From positions 61,609 to 125,608 of IMG/VR virus record IMGVR_UViG_3300033069_001940: 64,000 bases of DNA. One strand, given 5' to 3'. The notes under the pieces are model-generated. The model saw only the letters and a list, made by a program, of their open reading frames with translations, made no database searches and was not told the DNA's origin. Source of the DNA: a virus. Taxonomy: Duplodnaviria; Caudoviricetes. A program made the position numbers and the translations under genes. This document shows, piece by piece, positions 4,320-48,393 of this stretch; within the stretch, counting starts at the first letter, position 1, and each line of letters begins with the position of its first letter.

Positions 4320-5749
4320 TGGAAGAAGACTTAGACTTAATTATAGAAGAGCAAGACCTTAGAATCTTAAAATCAGTTACTTCAGATCTAAATTGTGGTT
4401 TAGAGTTTGCACAAACTTATAGTGAAGATTTATTTGTTGGCGACGCTAAAAAGTTAGCTAAACCTGTTTTATCTTATCTTAGAGCTTACAAAAATTTACC
4501 AACTGAACGTGTTTTAATTGAGCATTCTCGTACAAAAGAGGATAAGCAAGTTATTTCGCATTTATGGCAAGAAGTTCAGAAAACTGAATTTGATCAAAGC
4601 GAATTTAGGTATGAATTAGATAAGATTAAAAATAGATATACTGTAAATAAAATTCAATCTCTAAAAGATTTAGAGTTTGGAGAAGACTTAGAGCAAACTA
4701 TACGAAGAATTCAGACAGAATTAGAATCTGTCAAACAGATTCGTTCTGGTAAAGCGGCCACTTTTACTCAAAAAACATTAAAAAGTTACGTTCCAGAATT
4801 TAAAAAAGTTTACAATGATAAATATAACGATAAAACTTTAGGTCGTGGCATATTAACTGGGTATTCATTTTTAGATTATGTAAAGAACGGATTATTACCA
4901 TCTGATATGGTGGTAATAGGTGGAGAGACAGCTTCGGGAAAATCTGTGTTTTTAAACAATTTAGCTGTTCAAATGTGGATGCAGAAAAATACTCTTGATA
5001 CTCATCCTTCAGAGTTTACAAAAGGGTGCAATGTTCTGTATTTTTCATTAGAAATGCCATACGAGATGTGTGCTCGACGTACGTTTGGACGCTTGGCTGA
5101 TGTTCCCTTATATGCTTTAAGGGATTCTACTCTTAATCGCTCTGAAATGGAATCAATGGCCAAGGCAACTTCTTTTATTGAGAAGTATCCATTTGAATTT
5201 GAAATAGTTGATATTCCTAGAGGAGTAACGGTTGACCAAATTGAGGCTAGATTTTTAGATGCTCGTCAAAGATTTCAGCCAGATGTAATTGTCGTCGATT
5301 ATCTTGGTTTATTAGAAGACCATGAGGCTCAAGGTGATGATTGGTTAAAATTAGGTTTTATTGCTGGCAAACTTCATGAATTAGCTAGAGCTTATAATAT
5401 CGTGATGTTGACGGCTGTTCAACTTAATAGAATTAGTTCTAAAAATCCAGACCATAATGAAGTAGTTGGCATGCATAGAATTGGTCGATCATCATTAATC
5501 ATGCATAATGCTACAGTTGGAATTCAAATTGAAACCAGAAAAGACGAGCACTTATTTGCTGATTTTAGGTATCACATAATTAAGAATCGGGACGGCGCTT
5601 TGGGCGGCCATTCTCTTAAAAAGAATTTTAAAAATGCTTCACTGTTAGATACAGAATATGTTTCTGATGGCATTATTTCGACGGCTAGCGATAATGATGT
5701 GCAAGATATCTCAGACTTATTAGCTAAGTATAAATGGAATCAAAAATAA
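4316..5749 (+). CDS. dnaB: Replicative DNA helicase DnaB-like
   Basis: GETASGKS, YFSLEM, VVDYLGLL, AVQLNR, IIKNRDG motifs. Confidence 0.93.
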   Translation: MMEEDLDLIIEEQDLRILKSVTSDLNCGLEFAQTYSEDLFVGDAKKLAKPVLSYLRAYKNLPTERVLIEHSRTKEDKQVISHLWQEVQKTEFDQSEFRYELDKIKNRYTVNKIQSLKDLEFGEDLEQTIRRIQTELESVKQIRSGKAATFTQKTLKSYVPEFKKVYNDKYNDKTLGRGILTGYSFLDYVKNGLLPSDMVVIGGETASGKSVFLNNLAVQMWMQKNTLDTHPSEFTKGCNVLYFSLEMPYEMCARRTFGRLADVPLYALRDSTLNRSEMESMAKATSFIEKYPFEFEIVDIPRGVTVDQIEARFLDARQRFQPDVIVVDYLGLLEDHEAQGDDWLKLGFIAGKLHELARAYNIVMLTAVQLNRISSKNPDHNEVVGMHRIGRSSLIMHNATVGIQIETRKDEHLFADFRYHIIKNRDGALGGHSLKKNFKNASLLDTEYVSDGIISTASDNDVQDISDLLAKYKWNQK

Positions 5750-7804: not shown

Positions 7805-8494
7805 ATGAGTTTAAAAAATATCCAAGAACAAAACGAAAAAGTAGAAAAAATAATAGATCAGTTTCTTCTTTTAAAGAAGAATTCAGTTAAATCTTTGGCC
7901 AACAAACAAGAATTTGAAAAATTTCAAAACTTTTGTATGAAAGAATTAAATTTTTTAGTTCAAAAAAGAGTTGCTAAATATAAAAAGTTTTCTAATTATC
8001 AAGATTTGCAACAAGATGGATATGAGGCTCTTCTTTATGCTCTTCGGACCTTTAAAAGAGAAAAAGGCTGCTTCTCTTGGTGGGCTGATAAGTATATTAG
8101 CACAAGAGTGTCGAGGGCTGCTAACACACATTCCACAATCCGTTTCCCTTTAAAAGTTACAAAAGAGTCAAAGCCTCATAAAATTAGTATTGATACTTCA
8201 TCAACGGATGAACAATCTCAAATTATATTTTCGCAGGAAACTTATCCTTCTTCAGCTTTTCTGTTAGAAAAAGCCGAAGAAAACGCTATAGTGGGAGTTT
8301 TGTTAAATAAAATTGACCAACCTTATCAAGATTTATTAAAATTGACATATGGATTGGCTAATGAGATGGCTTTGCCAGTATCAAAAATAATTAAACAATT
8401 TCAAATATCTAGGTCTCAATATCTAAGGCTTCTAGAGGAAGCTAAAACAAAATTTAAAAATTTGTTAGATAATTATGAATATTCTGACAAATAA
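7805..8494 (+). CDS. Phage-encoded sigma70-family sigma factor
   Basis: Region 2: DLQQDGYEALLYALRTF..EKGCFSWWA..YI, TIRFP; region 4-like LTYGL...ISRSQY..L..EA. Confidence 0.85.
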   Translation: MSLKNIQEQNEKVEKIIDQFLLLKKNSVKSLANKQEFEKFQNFCMKELNFLVQKRVAKYKKFSNYQDLQQDGYEALLYALRTFKREKGCFSWWADKYISTRVSRAANTHSTIRFPLKVTKESKPHKISIDTSSTDEQSQIIFSQETYPSSAFLLEKAEENAIVGVLLNKIDQPYQDLLKLTYGLANEMALPVSKIIKQFQISRSQYLRLLEEAKTKFKNLLDNYEYSDK

Positions 8495-8535
8495 TAACCT
8501 AAAGATTCTTTAGGTTAGTCATTCGGAGAAAATTA

Positions 8536-10404
8536 ATGCATTCTAATATTAACAGTACAGAAATATTAAGCGAAATTACAATATTTAATAAATACGCCAA
8601 GTATGTTCCAGAAATATACAGGAGAGAAACTTGGGAAGAGTTATGCGAAAGAAATATGAATATGCATATTAAAAAATATCCTGAATTGGAGAATGAAATA
8701 AGATATGTGTATGCGAATTTTGTTCTGAAAAAGAAAGTGCTACCAAGCATGAGATCAATGCAATTTGCTGGTAAGCCAATTGAACTATCACCAAATAGAA
8801 TTTTTAATTGTGCATTTTGTCCTATTGATGATTATCGTGTTTTTTCTGAAATAATGTTTCTTTTGCTTGGCGGTACGGGTGTTGGATATTCTGTACAAAA
8901 ACATCATGTAGCAAAGCTTCCTCCAGTTAAAAAACCAGTGCGTACACGTCGGTATGTAGTTAGTGATTCAATTGAAGGTTGGGCCGACGCTGTAAAGGCG
9001 TTGGTTGGAGCCTACTTAGCCGGAAAGGCTTTACCAGTTTTTGATTATTCAGATATTAGACCTAAAGGCGCCGCCCTTGTTACGTCTGGCGGTAAAGCCC
9101 CAGGCCCTGAGCCTTTAAAAGATTGCATTCATAATTTACAAAAAATATTTGATAGAAAAAATGACGGAGAACAACTTACTACACTTGAAGCTCATGATGT
9201 AACTTGTTTTATAGCCGATGCAGTTTTGGCTGGCGGTATTCGTAGAGCCGCTTTAATTTCTTTATTTAATATTGATGATGAAGATATGTTAAGTTGTAAG
9301 GCTGGAAATTGGTGGGAGTTGAACCCACAAAGAGCCAGGGCTAATAATTCAGCCGTTGTCATGAGACATAAAGTTACTAAAGAAGATTTTATGAATCTTT
9401 GGTCCAAAGTAAAAGCTTCAAGAAGTGGCGAGCCAGGAATCTTATTCTCAAATAATTCCGAGTGGGGCACGAATCCTTGCAGCGAAATAGGTTTAAGACC
9501 ATTCCAATTTTGTAATTTGGTTGAAATAAATCTTTCAAATATTGAATCTCAAGAAGATCTTAATGAAAGAGCTAAAGCAGTTTCTTTTATTGCAACACTT
9601 CAGGCGGGATATACTGATTTTCATTATTTAAGAGACGTTTGGAAAAGAACAACGGAAAAAGACGCTTTGTTAGGCGTATCTGGCACCGGAATAGCATCAC
9701 AAGCTTATCTCAAGTGTAATTTACAAGAAGCGGCTGAAATAGTAAAACAAGAAAATAAAAGGATTGCTAAAATTATTGGTATCAATACTGCTGCTAGACA
9801 GACTTGTGTAAAACCTTCTGGCACCTCATCACTTGTTCTTGGTACATCATCAGGAATTCATGCCTGGTTTGATAAATTTTATATTCGTCGAATGAAGCTT
9901 GGCAAAAATGAGCCACTTTATAAGTATTTAAAAGAAAAAATGCCAAACTTAATTGAAGATGATTTCTTTAAACCAAATTTAGATGCATTTGTAATGATTC
10001 CAGTGGCGGCACCAAAAGACGCTGTAATTGCTCCAAATGAATCTGCTTTAGATCTATTAGAAAGAATTAAACATTTTTCTGAAAATTGGGTTAAGCCTGG
10101 CCATGTTAAAGGTGATAATACTCATAATGTTTCTGCGACTGTTTATATTAAGGACCATGAATGGGAAAATGTAGCTGAATGGATGTGGAGTAATAGAGAC
10201 TCATATAATGGGCTAGCTGTATTGCCATTTGATGGTGGTACTTATACGCAGGCTCCACATGAATCAATTACAGAAGAAAAATATAACGAATTAGTTTCGT
10301 ATATCAAAAATATTGATTTATCTGAAGTTGTTGAATCTATTGATAATACCTCTAGAAGTCAAGAACTTGCTTGTGCTGGCGGGGTTTGTGAAATTCAATA
10401 TTAG
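8536..10404 (+). CDS. nrdJ: Class II (B12-dependent) ribonucleotide reductase, monomeric type
   Basis: FNCAF, GGIRRAALI, TNPCSEI, FCNL, VKPSGT, C-terminal CAGGVCEI; no radical subunit adjacent. Confidence 0.93.
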   Translation: MHSNINSTEILSEITIFNKYAKYVPEIYRRETWEELCERNMNMHIKKYPELENEIRYVYANFVLKKKVLPSMRSMQFAGKPIELSPNRIFNCAFCPIDDYRVFSEIMFLLLGGTGVGYSVQKHHVAKLPPVKKPVRTRRYVVSDSIEGWADAVKALVGAYLAGKALPVFDYSDIRPKGAALVTSGGKAPGPEPLKDCIHNLQKIFDRKNDGEQLTTLEAHDVTCFIADAVLAGGIRRAALISLFNIDDEDMLSCKAGNWWELNPQRARANNSAVVMRHKVTKEDFMNLWSKVKASRSGEPGILFSNNSEWGTNPCSEIGLRPFQFCNLVEINLSNIESQEDLNERAKAVSFIATLQAGYTDFHYLRDVWKRTTEKDALLGVSGTGIASQAYLKCNLQEAAEIVKQENKRIAKIIGINTAARQTCVKPSGTSSLVLGTSSGIHAWFDKFYIRRMKLGKNEPLYKYLKEKMPNLIEDDFFKPNLDAFVMIPVAAPKDAVIAPNESALDLLERIKHFSENWVKPGHVKGDNTHNVSATVYIKDHEWENVAEWMWSNRDSYNGLAVLPFDGGTYTQAPHESITEEKYNELVSYIKNIDLSEVVESIDNTSRSQELACAGGVCEIQY

Positions 10405-38841: not shown

Positions 38842-39331
38842 GTTTTTGATAACTAAAATGATGAAAATTAAAAAGAAAAATCTTCCTTTTAAGATAAAAT
38901 CTATTTTAGTAGACAAAGGTTCTTGTTTTGTAGCAGAAATTAATTCTAAAAAAGTTGTAAAAGTAGCTTATAAAACTTCCAATATTAGGTGGCTATTTAA
39001 TATCTTAAAATATATTAAAACGAATCCAAATAACAGTACGGTTAAGATTTTTGATTATGGCTTAATTGGTAAAGATAAATATTATTATGTTATGGAGAGG
39101 TTGTATCCATTAAATAAACAACATATAAATCGTTTAATCAAAAATGGTTATGTTAGCTTTGTATGCAATAAACCTTTACATGATGCAAAATCTTATCCAA
39201 ATGAATCCGCTTTTATAAATGATATTTATCAACATAAATATTATCAATCAGACCCTAATTATGGAAATATTATGTTAACCAAAAATGGTAACTATAAATT
39301 TATAGACTTAGAAACATTTATAAAATTTTAA
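38825..39331 (+). CDS. Minimal protein kinase-like protein (start uncertain)
   Basis: VVKV, VKIFDYG, YYVMERL, DPNYGNIM, KFIDLE. Confidence 0.7.
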   Translation: MNTLNKFLITKMMKIKKKNLPFKIKSILVDKGSCFVAEINSKKVVKVAYKTSNIRWLFNILKYIKTNPNNSTVKIFDYGLIGKDKYYYVMERLYPLNKQHINRLIKNGYVSFVCNKPLHDAKSYPNESAFINDIYQHKYYQSDPNYGNIMLTKNGNYKFIDLETFIKF

Positions 39332-41559
39332 TTCCTAAATTGTTGAATAAAATTAATAGCTTCTTCTTTTGTCATAGCGGGATTTTCCAATAAAGCCTCT
39401 TTTAAGGCTTTGGTAACTTTGCCAACTTCGGGCCCCGGCTTTAGTCCTAGTATTGACATAATTTCTTTACCAGTAATTGGTGGAGCAATATCTTTTTTAC
39501 CACCAGTCATTTTAAGATATTCATCAATCATTTTTCCAAAACGATCGTACTTGGGATCTAGTTCAGATTTGGCTTTACCCATAGAATCGCCTTTAGACAT
39601 ATCAACTGACAAAAAGCTATCTTGTGGCCCTAAGTCTGTTACAAAGCTTCTAATGCTTTTATCTGAAACGTCTGAAGGCAATCCATGAAGTCTCATATGA
39701 TTCTTAATTAAAGAAACTACCCTATCTTTAATATCATTAGGGGCTTTTAAATCAGTAAGTATTTCTTCAGCCATCAACGCTGAAGAAACTTCATGTCCTC
39801 GGTAAGTATAATGTTCTGGGTTATCTTTTTGTTGTGAGCAAACATCACATTTGCCGCTGTCGTGGAGAAGCATTGCTAGATTTCTAACAATTTCATCTTT
39901 AACATCCATTTTCTTAGCAAAAGATAATCCAGATTCATCCATATGCTTAAGATATTCTAAAGCCTTCATAGTATGGTTCCAAACTGTTTCAGTATGGTGT
40001 GGATTGTTTTGTTCCATATCCCAATCAGGAGTAGGCTGATTAATATTCCATTTCTCCCCGCTAGCCCTATTTTTTCTGACTTCTTCTTGATGTCTTTCAT
40101 AGGCTCTTTGAATTTGTTCTAGATTTGGTTTTAAAATTAAATCTCTAATACCTAAATCTTTTAATAATCTAGCAGCGCGATCGAAGTTAGGGCCAATTAG
40201 TAAGCCGCGCTTCCAATTATCTTTTTCTTTTTGTCCAATTAATTCAGATAAAATTCTTTCTTTGGTAATCTTTTTGCTAAAACTTTCTTGTACCCTAGGA
40301 TCATTAGCAGCAGCGATTAAACCTGGGTCTAATTGTAGATCGTATTTAGCCGCAAATCGAACGGCTCTTAGAATTCTAAGAGGGTCTTCTAAATAAGTTT
40401 GCACCGGATCGATTGGTGTTCTAGCTACTTTATTTTCTAAATCGTCTATTCCTCCAACAAAATCTTCAACTTTATCTTCGTTGATATTATAAAATAAACT
40501 GTTGATAGTTAAATCACGACGTTTAGCATCTTCTTCGGCAGGAACACCAAATTCTACTTCTGGGTTTCTAGAATCATCATTATAAACATCTTTTCTTAAT
40601 TGAACAAAATCAACTGAAATTCCTAGAATTGGAATTTGTGCTGATTCTATATTTTTATTAGCCTCTGTATTAGCTTCGACAGTAGTAACTTCTTCGGCTG
40701 CTGGCATGCCTTGTTCTTTCATCCATTCTAAAACTAATTTAGCAAAAGCAACTCCTGTCATATTATCAATAGCAATATCAATATCATGGGATGCTTTGCC
40801 CAAAAGTTTATCGCGCACCCAGCCGCCAGCCGCTCTTAAAACGGTGCTTGGAGTTTTTTCACGAACTACGGCCATGAGAAGTTCGAATATTTCTTTTTCC
40901 CTTTCTGTTAAAGAGATTTGAGAAGATAACTTAGCTTCTTTGGTTATTTTGTAAGAAGATAATTTTTTCCAAAATTCACGAGAGGCACTGGCAATTTTTG
41001 ATTCTAAGGTTAACATTCCTATTCCTAATAAATTTGCATCTTTAATTGAATGACTATTTCTAACTACTGCATTTGACTTAGGGCCAGAGTTTCCTTCAAT
41101 TGAAGTAAAATTATTTCCATTTGAGGATTCAATGACGCCTATATGACCTAATCCAGAACCTTGTGGTCCGCGTGACCAAACAGCTATATTGCCTGGGATT
41201 AAATGTTTAGGCTCTATTTTATTTTTGGGGATCCAGAGATTAGCTTGAGCGAATTGATTACCAACTTCGCGGGCTCCAACTGCTCCTTTAATCGGGCTGC
41301 TTCCGGCTTCTAACATCCAACTAGAGACAGCGGCAGCGCACCAATCTTGTTTGGCGCCCATCCCAAAATGTTTAAAATATTCTCTTATTCTTTGACCGTC
41401 ATTTTTGCCGAGGTCTTCGGAAACACCAATGTCTGCTTGGGCATTGTGTAAGACAGCTAATCCATAGGAGCTTGGGTTGATTCTGTTTTCCGGATCAAAA
41501 TCTTCAAGATCGGGCAAATATTCTTCCATTGATGGTATATCTTTTTCAGGCATTATCAT
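39328..41559 (-). CDS. cca: Fusion: CHAP-domain amidase + class II tRNA nucleotidyltransferase (CCA-adding/poly(A) polymerase family) with HD domain
   Basis: CHAP: WCAAAVS, GHIGVI, IEGNS; CCA: GGWVRDKLLG, DIDIA, RRDLTINSLFYN, EDPLRILRAVRF, QNNPHH...VWNH, LLHDSGK, GHE. Confidence 0.9.
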   Translation of the reverse strand: MIMPEKDIPSMEEYLPDLEDFDPENRINPSSYGLAVLHNAQADIGVSEDLGKNDGQRIREYFKHFGMGAKQDWCAAAVSSWMLEAGSSPIKGAVGAREVGNQFAQANLWIPKNKIEPKHLIPGNIAVWSRGPQGSGLGHIGVIESSNGNNFTSIEGNSGPKSNAVVRNSHSIKDANLLGIGMLTLESKIASASREFWKKLSSYKITKEAKLSSQISLTEREKEIFELLMAVVREKTPSTVLRAAGGWVRDKLLGKASHDIDIAIDNMTGVAFAKLVLEWMKEQGMPAAEEVTTVEANTEANKNIESAQIPILGISVDFVQLRKDVYNDDSRNPEVEFGVPAEEDAKRRDLTINSLFYNINEDKVEDFVGGIDDLENKVARTPIDPVQTYLEDPLRILRAVRFAAKYDLQLDPGLIAAANDPRVQESFSKKITKERILSELIGQKEKDNWKRGLLIGPNFDRAARLLKDLGIRDLILKPNLEQIQRAYERHQEEVRKNRASGEKWNINQPTPDWDMEQNNPHHTETVWNHTMKALEYLKHMDESGLSFAKKMDVKDEIVRNLAMLLHDSGKCDVCSQQKDNPEHYTYRGHEVSSALMAEEILTDLKAPNDIKDRVVSLIKNHMRLHGLPSDVSDKSIRSFVTDLGPQDSFLSVDMSKGDSMGKAKSELDPKYDRFGKMIDEYLKMTGGKKDIAPPITGKEIMSILGLKPGPEVGKVTKALKEALLENPAMTKEEAINFIQQFRN

Positions 41560-41607: not shown

Positions 41608-41955
41608 ATGGCAAATAATAATCAAGAACCAAATAATCAAAATCCCAAAGAAAATTCATCTGAGAAAAATGAAGTAACGCCTCAAAATAACGCCGAAGTG
41701 CCTAAAAAGCAAGAGAAATTCGTCACTCCGGTTAAAAGATATTATACAGTCAAAGTGGAGACCTTAACTCCTGTGATATTTTCCTACAGGATTTTAGCCG
41801 AGTCTCCAGAGGAGGCAATTAAAATCTCTGCGGACACTTGGAAACAACCGTCACAAGTATCTCCTCCACAGATTCTTTCTGGTAAGATGAAAAGACTAAA
41901 AGCAACAGTTTATGAATATGGTACCAATTTAATTAAATTGGTTAAAGCTTTATAG
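41608..41955 (+). CDS. Hypothetical protein
   Basis: 115-aa ORF. Confidence 0.7.
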   Translation: MANNNQEPNNQNPKENSSEKNEVTPQNNAEVPKKQEKFVTPVKRYYTVKVETLTPVIFSYRILAESPEEAIKISADTWKQPSQVSPPQILSGKMKRLKATVYEYGTNLIKLVKAL

Positions 41956-41966
41956 GTATAAAATAA

Positions 41967-42428
41967 ATGCAAGATTACTTATTAACAGATTTGGATATTA
42001 AAAATTTTAGCGATTTTCTCTATAGATTAAAAAAATGCATTGAATACATTTTAGAAAAAACAATAGTTATTTGCGAACTAGGTTATAGACCTAATCTCGA
42101 TGTCAAGCTTGATGGTTCTTTCACAGAAACGTTTGACTATCAAATAGTAAGATTTCGCGCCCATTCATTAGGAATTTCTAGACTAGAGATTATTCACAAT
42201 GGAAAAACTATCGATCTGTCAAGAAATATTCCATTGCCTTTTATCACAGATCCTAATTTTGAGGAAAAAATAAAAATTGGACGCAAATTATATTTAGATT
42301 CAATTATGGAAGCTCAAAACCTTCAACTGAAAAAATCAGAGCTATTAAAAAATGCAAAGAATAAACTTACCGTAGAAGAATTTAATGAATTGCGTAAAGA
42401 TATAATTGAAGATTACAGAAAAGATTGA
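41967..42428 (+). CDS. Hypothetical protein
   Basis: 153-aa ORF. Confidence 0.7.
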   Translation: MQDYLLTDLDIKNFSDFLYRLKKCIEYILEKTIVICELGYRPNLDVKLDGSFTETFDYQIVRFRAHSLGISRLEIIHNGKTIDLSRNIPLPFITDPNFEEKIKIGRKLYLDSIMEAQNLQLKKSELLKNAKNKLTVEEFNELRKDIIEDYRKD

Positions 42429-42441
42429 AAGGTATAAAAAA

Positions 42442-42498
42442 ATGGCGGGATTAAAGTATTTTATTATTGATACAGCTAGCATTTTTCCAGTTTGTTAG
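42442..42498 (+). pseudogene. Stranded 5' end of the exonuclease gene
   Basis: MAGLKYFIIDT.. vs MSGLKYFILDVET at 43580; both preceded by ATTGAAAGG. Confidence 0.85.
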
Positions 42499-43527
42499 TA
42501 TTAAATTTAGTTCATTAATTGTTGCATTATTTTTACAGCAATTAGCTATTGAAGATATTATTTGAACATTACCTTTTACATAGCCTAAATTATTATCAAT
42601 TCTGTCTAGTGTGGCTGAATATTTGCTATTTGCCTTTGTGCCAAATACAAATTTTTCACCAGTTAAAGGACAGCGGTTATCTAAAGGCCAGATTGATTTT
42701 AAATAATTCTCATCAATATTAAACTCCAAATTTTTCTTTGTAGCTCTTTTTTTAGCTCTATTTATTAAACCATTTTCCAAATGCAGCATAATATATTTCA
42801 TAGCCCTCGTTGGCGCGCTTTTCTCAACAAAAGCCATTCTGTCCGCAATAATATTTGACATAGTGACATCATCTATATTATGCGTCTCTATTTTGTATGT
42901 TTTAAGATTGTTTACTATTTTTTCAAAAAGTTTTAAATCAGAATTTGATTTTATTAAATTGGCCCTATAAGATATTATTTGAATATTTTCTTTTGTATAT
43001 CCTTTAGATGAATCTATTCTATCTATGGATGGAGAGTTATCATGCGCTTTATTATTACTTCCTTTTTGGAATTGGACATTTCGCAAAATACAGCGCTCTG
43101 TATTTTGTAATAGTAATTTAATATCTTCTTCTGTTATTGTAAATTCGAGACCAGATTTTCTAGCCCTTTGTCTGGCCGATGAGAATAAGAAATATTCCGG
43201 CCTATTGATTGTCCGATTTTTATCATATTGTAATAAACGCTCATGATTTTTATCAGTGTATTCTTTTCTCCAATTTTTATAAGCTTCATAATTTTCTTTT
43301 CTAGATTTGGCTTTAGATAACCGCTGACGCTCCCTGATTTTATCTAGGTTTTTATTACGATATCTTTGTTTACTAGCCTGTAATTTTTCTGGGCTGTTTT
43401 GTTTGAAGTTATTAGCATAAATCTGATACTTTTGCCGACACACTTGACATCTTTTATATGTTCTGTTGGTGCCTAGAAATTCTTCTAAATCAAATTCTTT
43501 TTTACAAATAGTACAATTTTGTTTCAT
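42451..43527 (-). CDS. HNH-type (His-Me finger) endonuclease with N-terminal Zn ribbon and two nuclease domains
   Basis: CxxC..CxxC; SIDRIDSSKGYTKENIQIISYRANLIK and TLDRIDNNLGYVKGNVQIISSIANCCK. Confidence 0.85.
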   Translation of the reverse strand: MKQNCTICKKEFDLEEFLGTNRTYKRCQVCRQKYQIYANNFKQNSPEKLQASKQRYRNKNLDKIRERQRLSKAKSRKENYEAYKNWRKEYTDKNHERLLQYDKNRTINRPEYFLFSSARQRARKSGLEFTITEEDIKLLLQNTERCILRNVQFQKGSNNKAHDNSPSIDRIDSSKGYTKENIQIISYRANLIKSNSDLKLFEKIVNNLKTYKIETHNIDDVTMSNIIADRMAFVEKSAPTRAMKYIMLHLENGLINRAKKRATKKNLEFNIDENYLKSIWPLDNRCPLTGEKFVFGTKANSKYSATLDRIDNNLGYVKGNVQIISSIANCCKNNATINELNLILTNWKNASCINNKIL

Positions 43528-43579
43528 ATGTCACTCTCCGTATCTCATATATAAAATTATTGAAAGGTTTTAAGTAAAA

Positions 43580-44158
43580 ATGTCAGGATTAAAATATTTT
43601 ATTTTGGATGTAGAAACTAATGGTTTATCTGCTCAAATACACGAGGTTAGTCAATTATCTATAATTAGGTGTTCGGATTTGGTTCAACTTAGCCGATATG
43701 TTAAAATTGAACATCCAGAGAAAACCTCCCGTGAAGCGCTAATAAAGACCGGAAGAACTTACAAAGATTTACTTAAAGGCGACGCAAAATTAGAAGTTAT
43801 AGATAGAGTAGAAAAATTCTTAGCGGAGGATGGGTCGCATCCAGACGAGCGTTGTGGAATCGGGCATAATGTAAGTTTTGATCGCCGCTTTCTTAAAGCC
43901 ATGTGGGAATCCGTTGGTAAAAAGTTTCCAGTCAATAATTGGCTTGACACTAGACCGATGGCGAAAAAATATGCCATGAAACTAGGTCTAGAAAAACCCT
44001 CCATGACATTAGAGAACATTTTAAAATTTGCAGAAATTAAAGGATTTGCTAATTTTCATAATGCCATTGACGATACAAGAAATCTTTATCTGTTTTGGAA
44101 AAAGTCAGTAGATCTAGGAATAGATTATCTAGATTGTATTAAACGCGATGAAGACTAA
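43580..44158 (+). CDS. DEDDh 3'-5' exonuclease (DnaQ-like), second copy
   Basis: LDVETNG, GHNVSFD, LDT, FHNAIDD. Confidence 0.9.
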   Translation: MSGLKYFILDVETNGLSAQIHEVSQLSIIRCSDLVQLSRYVKIEHPEKTSREALIKTGRTYKDLLKGDAKLEVIDRVEKFLAEDGSHPDERCGIGHNVSFDRRFLKAMWESVGKKFPVNNWLDTRPMAKKYAMKLGLEKPSMTLENILKFAEIKGFANFHNAIDDTRNLYLFWKKSVDLGIDYLDCIKRDED

Positions 44159-44666
44159 GCAAGAATTAATCAATTTAATTGAACGCGGTTCGTTGGAAAA
44201 CAAAAATCATAATATTCTTAATGAAGAAGCAGAGCAGGTCATATCTAAAATTATAGATATATCAAAAAATAATCCAAAATTATTATTTGAATCCTTATTA
44301 GAAGCCAAACTAAATACTCATTTAGTTACATATATTACACCTATTTTATTAGCTTTATTAATTAGTTACTCAGACCCGCTTAAATGGAAGAATGAAGAGC
44401 AATTTTTAGATTTGTTATCTAGATTTGATGCTTCTTTAATGTTAGAATTTTCGCTTTACTTTAAAAATCGTTGGTTTGGTGCTGGTTTAGGTTCTTCGCT
44501 TCAAAAAGCTATTAAAAAAGCTGTTGAGAATTGGAGTGATTCTATATTGGAAATGCATTTGGTTAATCAAAGAAAAGAATCTTATTCTTTGTTTAAAATA
44601 GTTCATCCTAAATTTAAAGGTAATAAGGCTAAATTAGTCAAAGAAAAATTATTCAACTTTGACTAG
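44148..44666 (+). CDS. Short TROVE/Ro60-like protein
   Basis: FGAGLGSSLQKAI...W...LFKIVHPK resembles TROVE G.GR..RKA...W...LLRL.HPK. Confidence 0.45.
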   Translation: MKTKQELINLIERGSLENKNHNILNEEAEQVISKIIDISKNNPKLLFESLLEAKLNTHLVTYITPILLALLISYSDPLKWKNEEQFLDLLSRFDASLMLEFSLYFKNRWFGAGLGSSLQKAIKKAVENWSDSILEMHLVNQRKESYSLFKIVHPKFKGNKAKLVKEKLFNFD

Positions 44667-46939: not shown

Positions 46940-48393
46940 GCTCAAATTTAGAAAAAAAATTAGATTTTTGGATTAAAAACAATTACAATGTTTTGTTTGT
47001 TGGTAAGGCGGGCGCCGGCAAAACTAGCATGATTAAAGAGGCTTTTACCAAAGCTTTTGGAGATAAATGGAAATATTTTTCAGCATCCACAATGGATCCA
47101 TGGGTTGATTTCGTCGGCGTTCCTAAGGAACGAGAAGATGAGAAAGGTCCATATTTAGATTTAATTCGCCCCAAAGAGTTTAGAGATGATGAAATCGAAG
47201 GATTGGTCTTTGATGAATATAATCGCGGATCAAAAAAAGTGAAAAACGCGGTAATGGAATTAATTCAATTTAAATCTATTAATGGAAGAAAGTTTAACAA
47301 CTTAAAAGTAGTGTGGGCTGCTGTTAATCCGGACGATGATGAAGATCAAAAATATGACGTTGAGCCAATCGACCCGGCTCAATTAGACAGATTTCATATT
47401 AAATGTGCGGTTCCTTATGAGCCCTACCTTCCCTATTTTAAAAATAAATTTGGCGCAGATATAGCTAAAGCAGCTATAAGCTGGTGGAAAGATTTAGATT
47501 CAAAACAGAAGAATTCAGTTTCTCCTCGGAGATTAGACTATGCCCTTGATTCATATTCTAATGGAGGAGATCTTAGAGATGTTTTGCCGTCCAGTACAAA
47601 TATTAGTAAATTAATAATGGAATTATCTTCTGGACCTATTTCCGAAAAAATTAAATCAATTTTTGATTCTAAAAATAAAGAAGAGGCAGAAAAGTTTTTA
47701 ATTAACGAAAATAATTATACTTCATCAATAAATAAGATTATTTCAAATAAAGAATATTTAAGATTCTTTTTACCATTAGTTAGCGATGAGAAATTATTAT
47801 CATTAATGAGTGATAATAATGTTCAAAAAGATATATTAGCAAATATTTCTGATTATTACGCTAAACTTTATCCTATTATTAAAAATATTCAATCTTCTAG
47901 GATAAAAAAGAATTTTGTTAAAAATTTGTTAAAAGAGTTAACCAATCATCACAAAAAAATAAATCCAGTTAATAAAACTATAGCCACTGGAGCCGTAAAT
48001 CCTACATCTCCAGCAGATATTAAAATTTATTATAATCCAGCATCTTCTTTGTATGATTTTAAGAATGAGATTTTATCTTGGAGAGTTCCTAGTCGCAATA
48101 CCGCACAAAGATATAAAAATTATAATAGTTTAGAAACTAATATTTGTAGTGATATTGGTTTAATTGAAATAATGGATTCATTTAAAATGATAGCAGATTT
48201 AATTGCTGCTTCGCAGGCAAATTATTCTTTAAAAACTAAGTTTAATAAACTTGGACAAATTATTAATTTTTTGATTCAAAAATCTGATGAATTAGGCGTT
48301 AATGGAATTGAAATGTTAAAGAAACATATTCCGTCTTATAACAACTCAAAATTATTATCTTTAAAAGATTTTGCGTATTACGATAAATTATGA
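46936..48393 (+). CDS. MoxR-like AAA+ ATPase
   Basis: GKAGAGKT, VFDEYNR, AAVNP, DPAQLDRF, SPR. Confidence 0.88.
   Translation: MSSNLEKKLDFWIKNNYNVLFVGKAGAGKTSMIKEAFTKAFGDKWKYFSASTMDPWVDFVGVPKEREDEKGPYLDLIRPKEFRDDEIEGLVFDEYNRGSKKVKNAVMELIQFKSINGRKFNNLKVVWAAVNPDDDEDQKYDVEPIDPAQLDRFHIKCAVPYEPYLPYFKNKFGADIAKAAISWWKDLDSKQKNSVSPRRLDYALDSYSNGGDLRDVLPSSTNISKLIMELSSGPISEKIKSIFDSKNKEEAEKFLINENNYTSSINKIISNKEYLRFFLPLVSDEKLLSLMSDNNVQKDILANISDYYAKLYPIIKNIQSSRIKKNFVKNLLKELTNHHKKINPVNKTIATGAVNPTSPADIKIYYNPASSLYDFKNEILSWRVPSRNTAQRYKNYNSLETNICSDIGLIEIMDSFKMIADLIAASQANYSLKTKFNKLGQIINFLIQKSDELGVNGIEMLKKHIPSYNNSKLLSLKDFAYYDKL

Follow-up and report, generated by a model that had tools for sequence, protein, structure and literature searches.

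An antisense HNH endonuclease gene flanked by two copies of an exonuclease gene start in an uncultured phage

Endonuclease genes and the genes beside them

Free-standing homing endonucleases shape phage genomes. In phage Aeh1, mobE is said to split nrdA, leaving 'genes in pieces'. There an HNH-type endonuclease gene sits at a conserved enzyme gene whose function is kept, through two expressed halves. The splitting of a nucleotide reductase gene by a homing endonuclease gene is documented in PMC10448857. The free-standing endonuclease genes of T4-like phages (Seg and Mob; 'intronless homing') lie beside, not inside, a conserved gene, occur sporadically among close relatives and have flanks that are co-converted and mosaic. 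Their slots can also exchange one endonuclease gene for another, as with segH/hef and mobC/mobE (PMC2988022). In fungal mitochondria, mobile endonuclease ORFs (mORFs) associated with duplicated gene ends have been described at atp6 of Allomyces and at atp6, atp9, cox2 and nad3 of Glomus. In these elements an ORF for a LAGLIDADG or GIY-YIG nuclease stands between two pieces of the target gene, one used and one silent, and the gene remains intact with no splicing; the duplication concerns the 3′ end of the gene, with a foreign piece in service and the native one displaced (PMC3630166).

We analyzed a 64,000-nucleotide stretch of phage DNA (the window) in which an antisense endonuclease gene lies between two copies of the start of an exonuclease gene. 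The source phages are uncultured, and both the exonuclease family and the endonuclease family come from large phages. As with Seg and Mob, the endonuclease gene is found beside a conserved gene, is sporadic among close relatives and has mosaic flanks; unlike them, its product has tandem PacI-like domains that lack the catalytic His, and it is encoded antisense. As at mobE/nrdA, an HNH-type gene adjoins a conserved enzyme gene with its function kept, but the window holds one whole gene and a dead stump only. The parallel with organellar elements that had been drawn in the original prediction is borne out by the mORFs: an endonuclease ORF between two copies of a target piece is present both in the window and in a second locus, L003. 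The differences are that the window nuclease is of the HNH type, that the duplicated piece is a 5′ end with its ribosome-binding site, and that the piece in use is that of the empty allele. Judged against the endonuclease-free relative L002, the mORF pattern of a foreign piece in use and a native piece displaced does not apply. In the papers on phage endonuclease genes that we consulted, we found no description of a cassette whose far side bears a truncated direct repeat of the 5′ end of its target. On the account we favor, the arrangement is a new phage version of an element type already known in fungal mitochondria.

Anatomy of the locus

The upstream gene (41967-42428, plus strand, from the ORF list) encodes 153 amino acids; its function is unassigned and it gave no Pfam or PHROG match. 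Its TGA stop codon at 42426-42428 lies inside copy 1, a dead exonuclease 5′ end on the plus strand at 42424-42475 that was identified by direct reading and by a local-alignment scan. Copy 1 consists of ATTGAAAGG, a spacer, an ATG at 42442, ten more codons (MAGLKYFIIDT) and a G at 42475. Copy 2 (43559-43613, plus strand) consists of ATTGAAAGG, a spacer, an ATG at 43580 (MSGLKYFILDV) and the G of GAA; comparison with L002 identifies it as the functional ribosome-binding site and first 11 codons of the exonuclease, and it continues as an intact gene for a 192-aa DEDDh 3′-5′ exonuclease (43580-44158, plus strand; PF00929, E 5.7e-16). Residues D10 and E12 of this protein align with Exo motif I (DxE) of PolC-type and DEDDh exonucleases (PDB 2p1j alignment). 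Between the copies, on the minus strand, are the 358-aa endonuclease gene (42451-43527) and its leader (43528-43558), which holds a 12-mer, AGATACGGAGAG, that is unique in the window and common to the L003 cassette. A promoter and terminator scan gave counts that did not differ from those of shuffled sequences, with zero terminators found.

The duplicated start that had been predicted on both sides of the HNH gene can thus be read directly at 42424-42475 and 43559-43613. The two copies are diverged direct repeats, 79% identical and with no exact match of more than 10 bases in common, and no other allele is as close to copy 1. When the exonuclease 5′ end was used as query, copy 1 scored 23.5, against 12.2 +/- 1.4 (maximum 16.5) for shuffled queries. 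As had also been noted, copy 1 keeps only the first base of the DxE Glu codon before it breaks off, and the HNH frame terminates inside it, with its stop codon at 42451-42453; downstream of 42475 the alignment to the exonuclease start is gone entirely. The x codon of the motif is ACA in copy 1 and GTA in copy 2. TTGAAAGG is too rare, with only four occurrences across the 64 kb, to be a generic ribosome-binding site, and ATTGAAAGG was likewise ruled out in that role, its four occurrences matching chance expectation. Copy 1 is without a coding role. The last eight sense codons of the endonuclease gene are antisense to copy 1, and this run of the frame into the repeat is incidental: the L003 endonuclease ends at its junction, the family's tails beyond a conserved NW vary, and the last three residues of the copy-1-derived tail have a pLDDT under 50 in the predicted structure. 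A functional role for this eight-residue tail was accordingly rejected. An exact search of IMG/VR for a copy-1-type allele found no match.

The endonuclease has an N-terminal Cys4 ribbon followed by a long helical region and two tandem PacI-like HNH (His-Me finger) domains. It matches phrog_3322 ('endonuclease', E 7.6e-58), phrog_1035 and phrog_3118; a Pfam search gave no endonuclease match even at E 10. A profile built from 21 family members, which share 51 invariant columns, had its best match in PacI (PDB 3ldy; His-Me finger group 20) at E 0.0027, with the family's SLDRIDstKGY...N aligned to VDRSDSFEGY...N of PacI. The D, R, G, Y and N of this DRxD...GY...N motif are invariant in both tandem domains, and the catalytic His is absent. 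In PacI-type enzymes a loop Tyr fills the general-base role of that His (PMC5714182), and the sequence suggests that the same holds here. An AlphaFold model of the protein (pLDDT 90) is predicted to have the beta-beta-alpha-metal fold of the PacI-like group: its best Foldseek match is 3ldy (probability 1.00, E 0.019, TM (target) 0.47), and weaker matches are to the HNH domains of Cas9 and colicin. The motif and the N-terminal Cys ribbon are common to both proteins; PacI, however, is a 142-aa single-domain homodimeric restriction enzyme. The similarity is modest by profile and by fold, and identity is low, about 21%.

Relatives and recombination boundaries

The original prediction had proposed a search for relatives with an empty allele, and such an allele was found. 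In L002, whose exonuclease is 96% identical and was read on six contigs, the 153-aa gene and the exonuclease gene are immediate neighbors and the endonuclease gene is missing. In L004 the same slot is occupied by a LAGLIDADG_3 gene (E 2.1e-10), a swap comparable to those of T4-like slots; the endonuclease is also absent from L005, L006, L110 and L111. These observations support the proposed mobility of the endonuclease cassette. The gene is present, in antisense orientation, in the window, L003 and L007-10, and co-oriented with the exonuclease in L011, L012, L093, L095, L096 and L108/109. Family members, at 46-58% identity, stand at the 5′ end of the exonuclease family in every locus whose DNA or called genes extend far enough; P0016 has the L007 layout on a contig that stops short of the exonuclease side. 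This directly observed presence/absence polymorphism, at a fixed position beside a conserved gene, is as for a free-standing homing endonuclease gene. In the tree, the antisense endonucleases fall into a single clade (support 93/96) whose tips are long, about 0.57 changes per site, and to which P0022 is sister; those of the window and L003 are 57% identical. The endonuclease also behaves as a horizontally moving gene: its identity is 48-58% while exonuclease identity in the same genome pairs ranges from 28% to 81%. In IMG/VR, neither the exonuclease nor the 153-aa protein found a relative when used as a single-protein query; the endonuclease family profile matched 80 loci there, all of them distant, most matched over part of the length only, and none next to this exonuclease. 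A scan of GTDB genomes gave no matches. A blastn search against GenBank phages gave a single short match, unrelated.

The repeat itself was found only in the window and L003, with a score of 23.5 in each against about 12 +/- 1.3 for shuffles. L003 has the same layout as the window, with a dead 5′ copy of its own that stops at the same DxE codon: the break falls after GATACAG in the window and after GATACT in L003, so that a break point common to two lineages is directly established. The repeat is absent from six endonuclease-free alleles, so that, in keeping with the original prediction, a duplicated 5′ end is seen only together with the endonuclease; it is also absent, despite the endonuclease, from L007/L008, L011, L012, L093, L095, L096 and L108/109. 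Each copy 1 resembles copy 2 of its own genome (79% in the window, 72% in L003) more than the two copies 1 resemble each other (66%), and each has its own copy 2's lineage-specific features, such as whether codon 2 is present and whether the residues read YFI or YYV.

Comparison with L002 places the edges of the imported segment. Over 42023-42417 only 3 of 395 bases differ between the two; three differences then fall within 42418-42425, divergence across copy 1 is about 20%, and identity returns exactly at the TGAAAGG of copy 2, which from there on equals the L002 start save for one base in an A run. The left boundary therefore lies at 42396-42418 and the right boundary at 43559-43567. With a segment start between 42396 and 42418, the last 11-33 or so bases of the 153-aa gene belong to the imported segment, and the diverged dead copy is contiguous with this foreign tail. 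The exonuclease gene is itself mosaic, its 5′ third being L002-like and its 3′ part, from about 43880, L004-like by binned identities. Sharp recombination boundaries with co-conversion of flanks, as expected of a free-standing homing endonuclease gene, are thus present.

Origin of the duplicated start

We judge it somewhat probable that the cassette is a free-standing PacI-like HNH homing endonuclease gene and that copy 1 is a product of the break repair that moved it. Rather than a cut-proof replacement, the duplication is most probably a scar left by gene conversion under the endonuclease, or a homology arm for it, and copy 1 likely marks the break point of DNA repair. We infer that the endonuclease would break endonuclease-free alleles at or beside the DxE codons. 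One such break would have been repaired one-sidedly: at the right end, the exonuclease start and the endonuclease gene would have been copied from the donor; the left end, still bearing the ribosome-binding site and 11 codons, would have been joined just past the endonuclease gene. The resulting repeat may give the cassette target homology on both sides, with copy 1 as the left arm and the exonuclease body as the right. Ordinary homologous repair could then be enough for the cassette to spread, also into genomes with a different upstream gene, and local sequence could serve anew as the template for copy 1 at each transfer. For efficient homing, about 50 bp of homology reportedly suffices, a figure attributed to Parker et al. 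1999. A precedent for the first step is T4 td intron homing (Parker, Belisle and Belfort 1999), for which the summary in PMC2988022 describes one-sided illegitimate repair with junctions at ectopic sites. As summarized there, homology on one side still allows the element to be acquired, which predicts a retained recipient end up to the break; those products are laboratory constructs, whereas the window would hold a natural product that persisted and spread. Microhomology at the window junction could not be established. Copy 1 is probably not an old relic, being still so similar to its own copy 2 despite the long endonuclease tips.

Several observations weigh against this account. The repeat is present in two loci only and their endonucleases belong to one clade, so the shared break point could reflect a single event. 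In the last transfer, copy 1 seems to have come from a donor with a foreign upstream tail and is not simply a remnant of the recipient. Both boundaries relative to L002 lie at the junction of stop codon and ribosome-binding site, not at the DxE codons, and a cut site at that junction fits the last transfer at least as well. Moreover, the DxE region of endonuclease-bearing genomes is uninterrupted and the same as in endonuclease-free ones, which does not explain how self-cutting would be avoided. The modest similarity to PacI is a further weakness. A more specific form of the break-repair account is possible, though less likely than not: copy 1 would be a carried homology arm, rebuilt from the recipient at each transfer and freeing the element from its upstream context, its break point would record the cleavage site at the active-site codons, and the element would be a phage 5′ counterpart of the mitochondrial ORFs.

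The original prediction had instead proposed that the endonuclease was inserted at the DxE codons together with a recoded, cut-proof replacement 5′ end, giving splicing-free homing. We consider this unlikely. The layout does mirror that of mitochondrial elements carrying a spare gene end (PMC3630166), a transfer starting at the DxE codons would bring the donor's copy 2, and the copies do differ at the x codon. However, the supposedly immune working start is that of endonuclease-free L002 save for the one A-run base, and copy 2 with the gene body gives an uninterrupted DxE region equal to that of the empty allele. The codons GAT ACN GAA AC occur at this position both with the endonuclease (L003, L012, L108) and without it (L005, L006, L111), the L003 working copy retains GAT ACA GAA, and there is no consistent DxE codon difference between endonuclease-bearing and endonuclease-free alleles. 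The piece in use is L002-like, and it is the dead copy that has diverged and is joined to the foreign tail of the upstream gene, the opposite of the mitochondrial pattern. What survives of this model is the mobile cassette, the tie between repeat and cassette, and the intact gene; the recoded, immune start is not supported.

Alternatively, the endonuclease might not be selfish at all and might assist the exonuclease as an accessory protein, as in a nick-then-degrade scheme, and be gained and lost along with it by ordinary phage recombination, with the repeat as a by-product of one such rearrangement. Its place next to the exonuclease family in all judgeable loci, across very distant phages, the 51 invariant residues kept by the family, and the overlap of endonuclease stop with exonuclease start in the co-oriented L011, L012 and L108/109, which suggests co-expression, would all suit such a role. 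We nevertheless find it quite improbable, given close relatives that have an intact exonuclease without the endonuclease, the LAGLIDADG gene in the same slot, the antisense orientation in one clade, and a divergence of the endonuclease that is decoupled from that of the exonuclease.

There is also little probability that the exonuclease gene was long ago duplicated in tandem and that copy 1 is what remained of the first gene after the endonuclease gene had overwritten most of it, with the break point dating from that single event. The repeat is direct and in the same orientation, the antisense endonucleases are one clade, and the junction is no more than about 20 bases away from the conserved C-terminal NW of the endonuclease both in the window and in L003. 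But a neutral 50-base remnant should be unrecognisable at the endonuclease identity and tip lengths given above, each stump follows its own genome's allele, and no relative has a tandem exonuclease pair at this position.

An independent contig assembly contains the entire stretch with zero differences, and runs from two studies yielded identical pieces spanning the left boundary and the junction between endonuclease start and copy 2; the junction of copy 1 with the endonuclease gene is covered only by the full-length contig. Contigs of four runs contained neither a joint nor an endonuclease-free form, and pieces of the endonuclease-bearing allele occur in two studies; no RNA run was among those listed as containing the sequence. 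A high-depth loose end at 42440, considered as a third allele, proved to be a chance 30-base match to an unrelated, higher-GC phage (L113/L114). Although low-depth contigs end near the singly spanned junction, it is extremely improbable that the repeat is a chance resemblance, as it scores about 8 sd over shuffles, or an assembly chimera of endonuclease-bearing and endonuclease-free strains, as L003 has the same architecture in an unrelated sample and assembly, the endonuclease frame is clean across the junction, and exact matches between the copies do not exceed 10 bases, so that the repeat is unlikely to have misled the assembler.

Free-standing endonucleases cut at a distance from where their genes are inserted, which makes their cleavage sites difficult to deduce from sequence; here the truncated target copy, which ends at one and the same codon in both lineages, may be a direct pointer to the cut site. 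The repeat also suggests a route by which such an element could spread where the upstream genes are not conserved. Finally, the comparison defines a family of tandem-domain PacI-like HNH proteins associated with a single exonuclease gene of large, uncultured phages, and if the enzyme is specific, this family would be a new homing-endonuclease scaffold.

Anatomy of the repeat and its flanks

The window belongs to an IMG/VR virus record of 125.6 kb, rated 29% complete by CheckV, and therefore to a fragment of a large phage genome. On its plus strand, a gene encoding 153 aa of unknown function (41967-42428) ends in a TGA stop inside the first occurrence of a ATTGAAAGG block (42424-42432). After a spacer, this block is followed by a coding piece, copy 1, which consists of an ATG at 42442, ten more codons (MAGLKYFIIDT in all) and a G at 42475; past 42475 no resemblance to the exonuclease remained in alignment. 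A 358-aa endonuclease ORF lies on the minus strand (42451-43527), its stop and last 8 sense codons being the antisense of copy 1. The second ATTGAAAGG starts at 43559 and precedes the working start, copy 2, of an intact plus-strand gene (ATG at 43580) for a 192-aa DEDDh exonuclease (PF00929, E 5.7e-16), whose D10 and E12 (DxE) line up with Exo motif I of solved exonucleases. The match between the copies scored 23.5, against 12.2 +/- 1.4 for shuffled queries, and the 8-mer TTGAAAGG common to both is not a frequent ribosome-binding site (RBS) in the window's genome. The anatomy described in the original prediction, a repeat flanking an antisense HNH gene and breaking at DxE, was therefore correct throughout.

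An independent contig assembly reproduced 41900-44300 with zero differences, and in runs from two studies both the left boundary and the junction of endonuclease start and copy 2 are spanned by identical pieces; junction 42475/42476 is covered only by the full-length contig. The same architecture is present in L003, a relative's locus from an unrelated sample, where an antisense endonuclease homologue and its own dead 5′ copy lie behind an unrelated 52-aa gene. There the break follows GAT ACT, at the codon where copy 1 of the window also breaks, and the start codon of the dead copy has decayed to ATT. Copy 1 of the window retains a good RBS and ATG, and 42442-42498 could be read as an 18-aa peptide (MAGLKYFIIDTASIFPVC) on the strand opposite the endonuclease 3′ end; given the decayed ATG of L003, a conserved peptide product is unlikely. 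Just 5′ of the endonuclease start, a 12-base leader block, AGATACGGAGAG (43534-43545, minus strand), occurs once in the 64-kb window and is kept in L003 (~4938-4949) despite a protein identity of just 57%; the cassette may use it as a signal for its own expression.

The endonuclease and its relatives

A Pfam search with the endonuclease ORF gave no match. PHROG matches were strong (best 7.6e-58) and fell in two stretches, to families that carry the annotations endonuclease, endonuclease VII and HNH endonuclease. When 21 full-length relatives were aligned, 51 columns were invariant, and the alignment revealed a Cys4 ribbon at the N terminus, a long helical part and two tandem copies of the motif C-P...F..G...S..DRID..KGY...N......AN..K. 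The profile of this alignment matched the restriction enzyme PacI (E 0.0027), placing the motif opposite PacI DRSD...GY...N, and PacI was also the best fold match (probability 1.00, E 0.019) of an AlphaFold model with pLDDT 90. In His-Me finger nucleases of the PacI type, the usual catalytic histidine is missing and a tyrosine in the loop takes its place (PMC5714182). Profile and fold thus lend modest support to the HNH label for this predicted nuclease, and the label stands at the superfamily level.

Relatives of the exonuclease were found at 96, 82, 81, 75, 55% identity and lower. In the closest locus, L002 (96%, the protein being present in six contigs read), the 153-aa gene is followed by 17 bases and then by the exonuclease, and the endonuclease gene is absent. 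It is also absent from L005 and L006, where the upstream gene differs from the window's. In L004, the slot that separates the 153-aa gene from the exonuclease, used by the endonuclease gene in the window, holds a plus-strand LAGLIDADG_3 gene (E 2.1e-10; L004:1129-1998), whose 3′ end provides the exonuclease RBS. The L004 exonuclease (1999-2577) is a mosaic, its C-terminal half identical to the window's and its N-terminal half like that of L003 (exonuclease 81%). Its motif-I region is unusually recoded (GGT GAT AGC GAG ACG CTT GGG; YYVGDSETLGLD); should a recoded target site exist among these alleles, this one would be the candidate.

Other members of the endonuclease family, at 46-58% identity, lie at the 5′ edge of a same-family exonuclease wherever this could be judged, that is, where fetched DNA or called genes extend far enough beyond the endonuclease. 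They are antisense in L007-10 and co-oriented in L011, L012, L093, L095, L096 and L108/109, with the endonuclease stop overlapping the exonuclease start in L011, L012 and L108/109. The family member P0016 has the L007 layout on a contig that ends before the exonuclease side, and in L094, L097 and L098 the locus is cut off by the end of the contig. L110 and L111, from the second phage group, to which these other members belong, are empty. More distant IMG/VR endonuclease relatives, mostly partial-length matches, do not adjoin this exonuclease. Among the loci compared, the dead-copy repeat occurs only in the window and L003: a scan found none in six endonuclease-free loci and none in the remaining endonuclease-bearing loci. 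The second phage group also carries further selfish elements, a GIY-YIG/NUMOD3 homing endonuclease two genes upstream of the exonuclease (L111:1328-2239) and, near the exonuclease, IMPDH genes with intein/Hint matches (L012:7069-8035 and L110:5454-6627).

The surrounding region varies as well. L002 has ~770 extra bases with three small genes (L002:3745-4510) between a 114/115-aa gene and the 153-aa gene (window 41955-41967), and one of the three, of 115 aa, may duplicate the 115-aa gene; L003 has a different small-gene set upstream, and L005 and L006 lack the 153-aa gene. Sequence comparison shows hypervariability upstream of the exonuclease. Inside an 858-aa gene whose product matches Intein_splicing, L002 contains ~1.16 kb (8185-9344) that is missing from the window homologue (~47190-47230), and thus an intein presence/absence polymorphism separates near-identical phages. 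A 743-aa fusion of CHAP and a CCA-adding/poly(A) polymerase-type nucleotidyltransferase (window 39328-41559, minus strand) is kept in L002 (1108-3333) and L003 (1-1138); it is therefore a stable feature of the phage group, and misassembly was rejected as its source.

Mobility and the probably foreign copy

Four lines of comparison agree that the endonuclease gene is mobile, as had been proposed. Its presence among close relatives is sporadic, and its slot can hold another endonuclease gene (LAGLIDADG_3, L004). Endonuclease identity stays at 48-58% irrespective of exonuclease identity (28-81%) in the same genome pairs; between the window and L003 the values are 57% and 81%, whereas distant pairs show the reverse. 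Finally, the boundaries are sharp. Against L002, only 3 of 395 bases differ over 42023-42417, the next 3 differences fall within 42418-42425, divergence is ~20% through copy 1, and identity restarts exactly at TGAAAGG of copy 2. The window exonuclease is itself mosaic, L002-like to ~43760 and 98-100% L004-like from ~43880. Sporadic presence, slot exchange, sharp boundaries and a mosaic target are the pattern known from the free-standing homing endonucleases that T4-type phages carry (PMC2988022, PMC10448857).

The proposal that copy 2 is a recoded, immune replacement start was not supported, since copy 2 equals the empty L002 allele but for one A-run base. At the DxE codons, alleles with and without the endonuclease did not differ consistently, GAT ACN GAA AC being present in both. 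The diverged copy is the dead copy 1, which is contiguous with a foreign form of the upstream gene's final three codons (RKD vs KND). Import of 42418-43558 (upstream-gene tail, copy 1, endonuclease gene and leader) into an L002-like genome would therefore be the simplest single event. Alternatively, with 5 differences in ~200 bases, the L002-like stretch right of the insert could be donor DNA merely resembling L002. In fungal mitochondrial elements the working piece is the foreign one and the native piece is displaced (PMC3630166); the window reverses this pattern, its displaced copy being diverged and its working start that of the empty allele.

Possible renewal of the dead copy and a proposed model for its origin

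The antisense endonucleases group into a single clade (support 93/96) whose tips are unresolved and long, at ~0.57 changes per site, and a neutral 50-base stump dating from the clade's origin should be beyond recognition by now. Each dead copy is closer to its own genome's working start (79% in the window, 72% in L003) than to any other allele, the two dead copies are 66% identical, and each has the lineage traits of its own working start (codon 2 present or absent, YFI vs YYV). The copies were therefore either made independently or renewed; on either account, a recurring process would link this endonuclease to breakage at the DxE codons.

We propose that the enzyme would break alleles lacking the endonuclease at the DxE codons, or close to them, and that one-sided repair, a documented outcome of T4 intron homing when homology is limited (PMC2988022, citing Parker et al. 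1999), would have made the repeat. The right end would copy from the donor the start of the exonuclease as well as the endonuclease gene; the left end, with RBS and 11 codons, would be joined just past the latter. The cassette would thereby gain target homology on both sides for ordinary homologous repair, and could move despite differing upstream genes, as they do in the window and L003; with every transfer, copy 1 could be re-templated from the 3′ tail of the recipient itself. Counting against this mechanism, only two loci have the repeat, the last transfer into the window had both boundaries at the stop/RBS junction rather than at DxE, and endonuclease-bearing genomes retain an intact DxE region and would somehow have to avoid self-cutting. 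On sequence and model grounds, the locus is that of a free-standing PacI-like HNH homing endonuclease, with putative cleavage, whose gene adjoins the 5′ end of a DEDDh exonuclease gene. That the cassette is accompanied by a truncated direct repeat of its target's start is a real finding.
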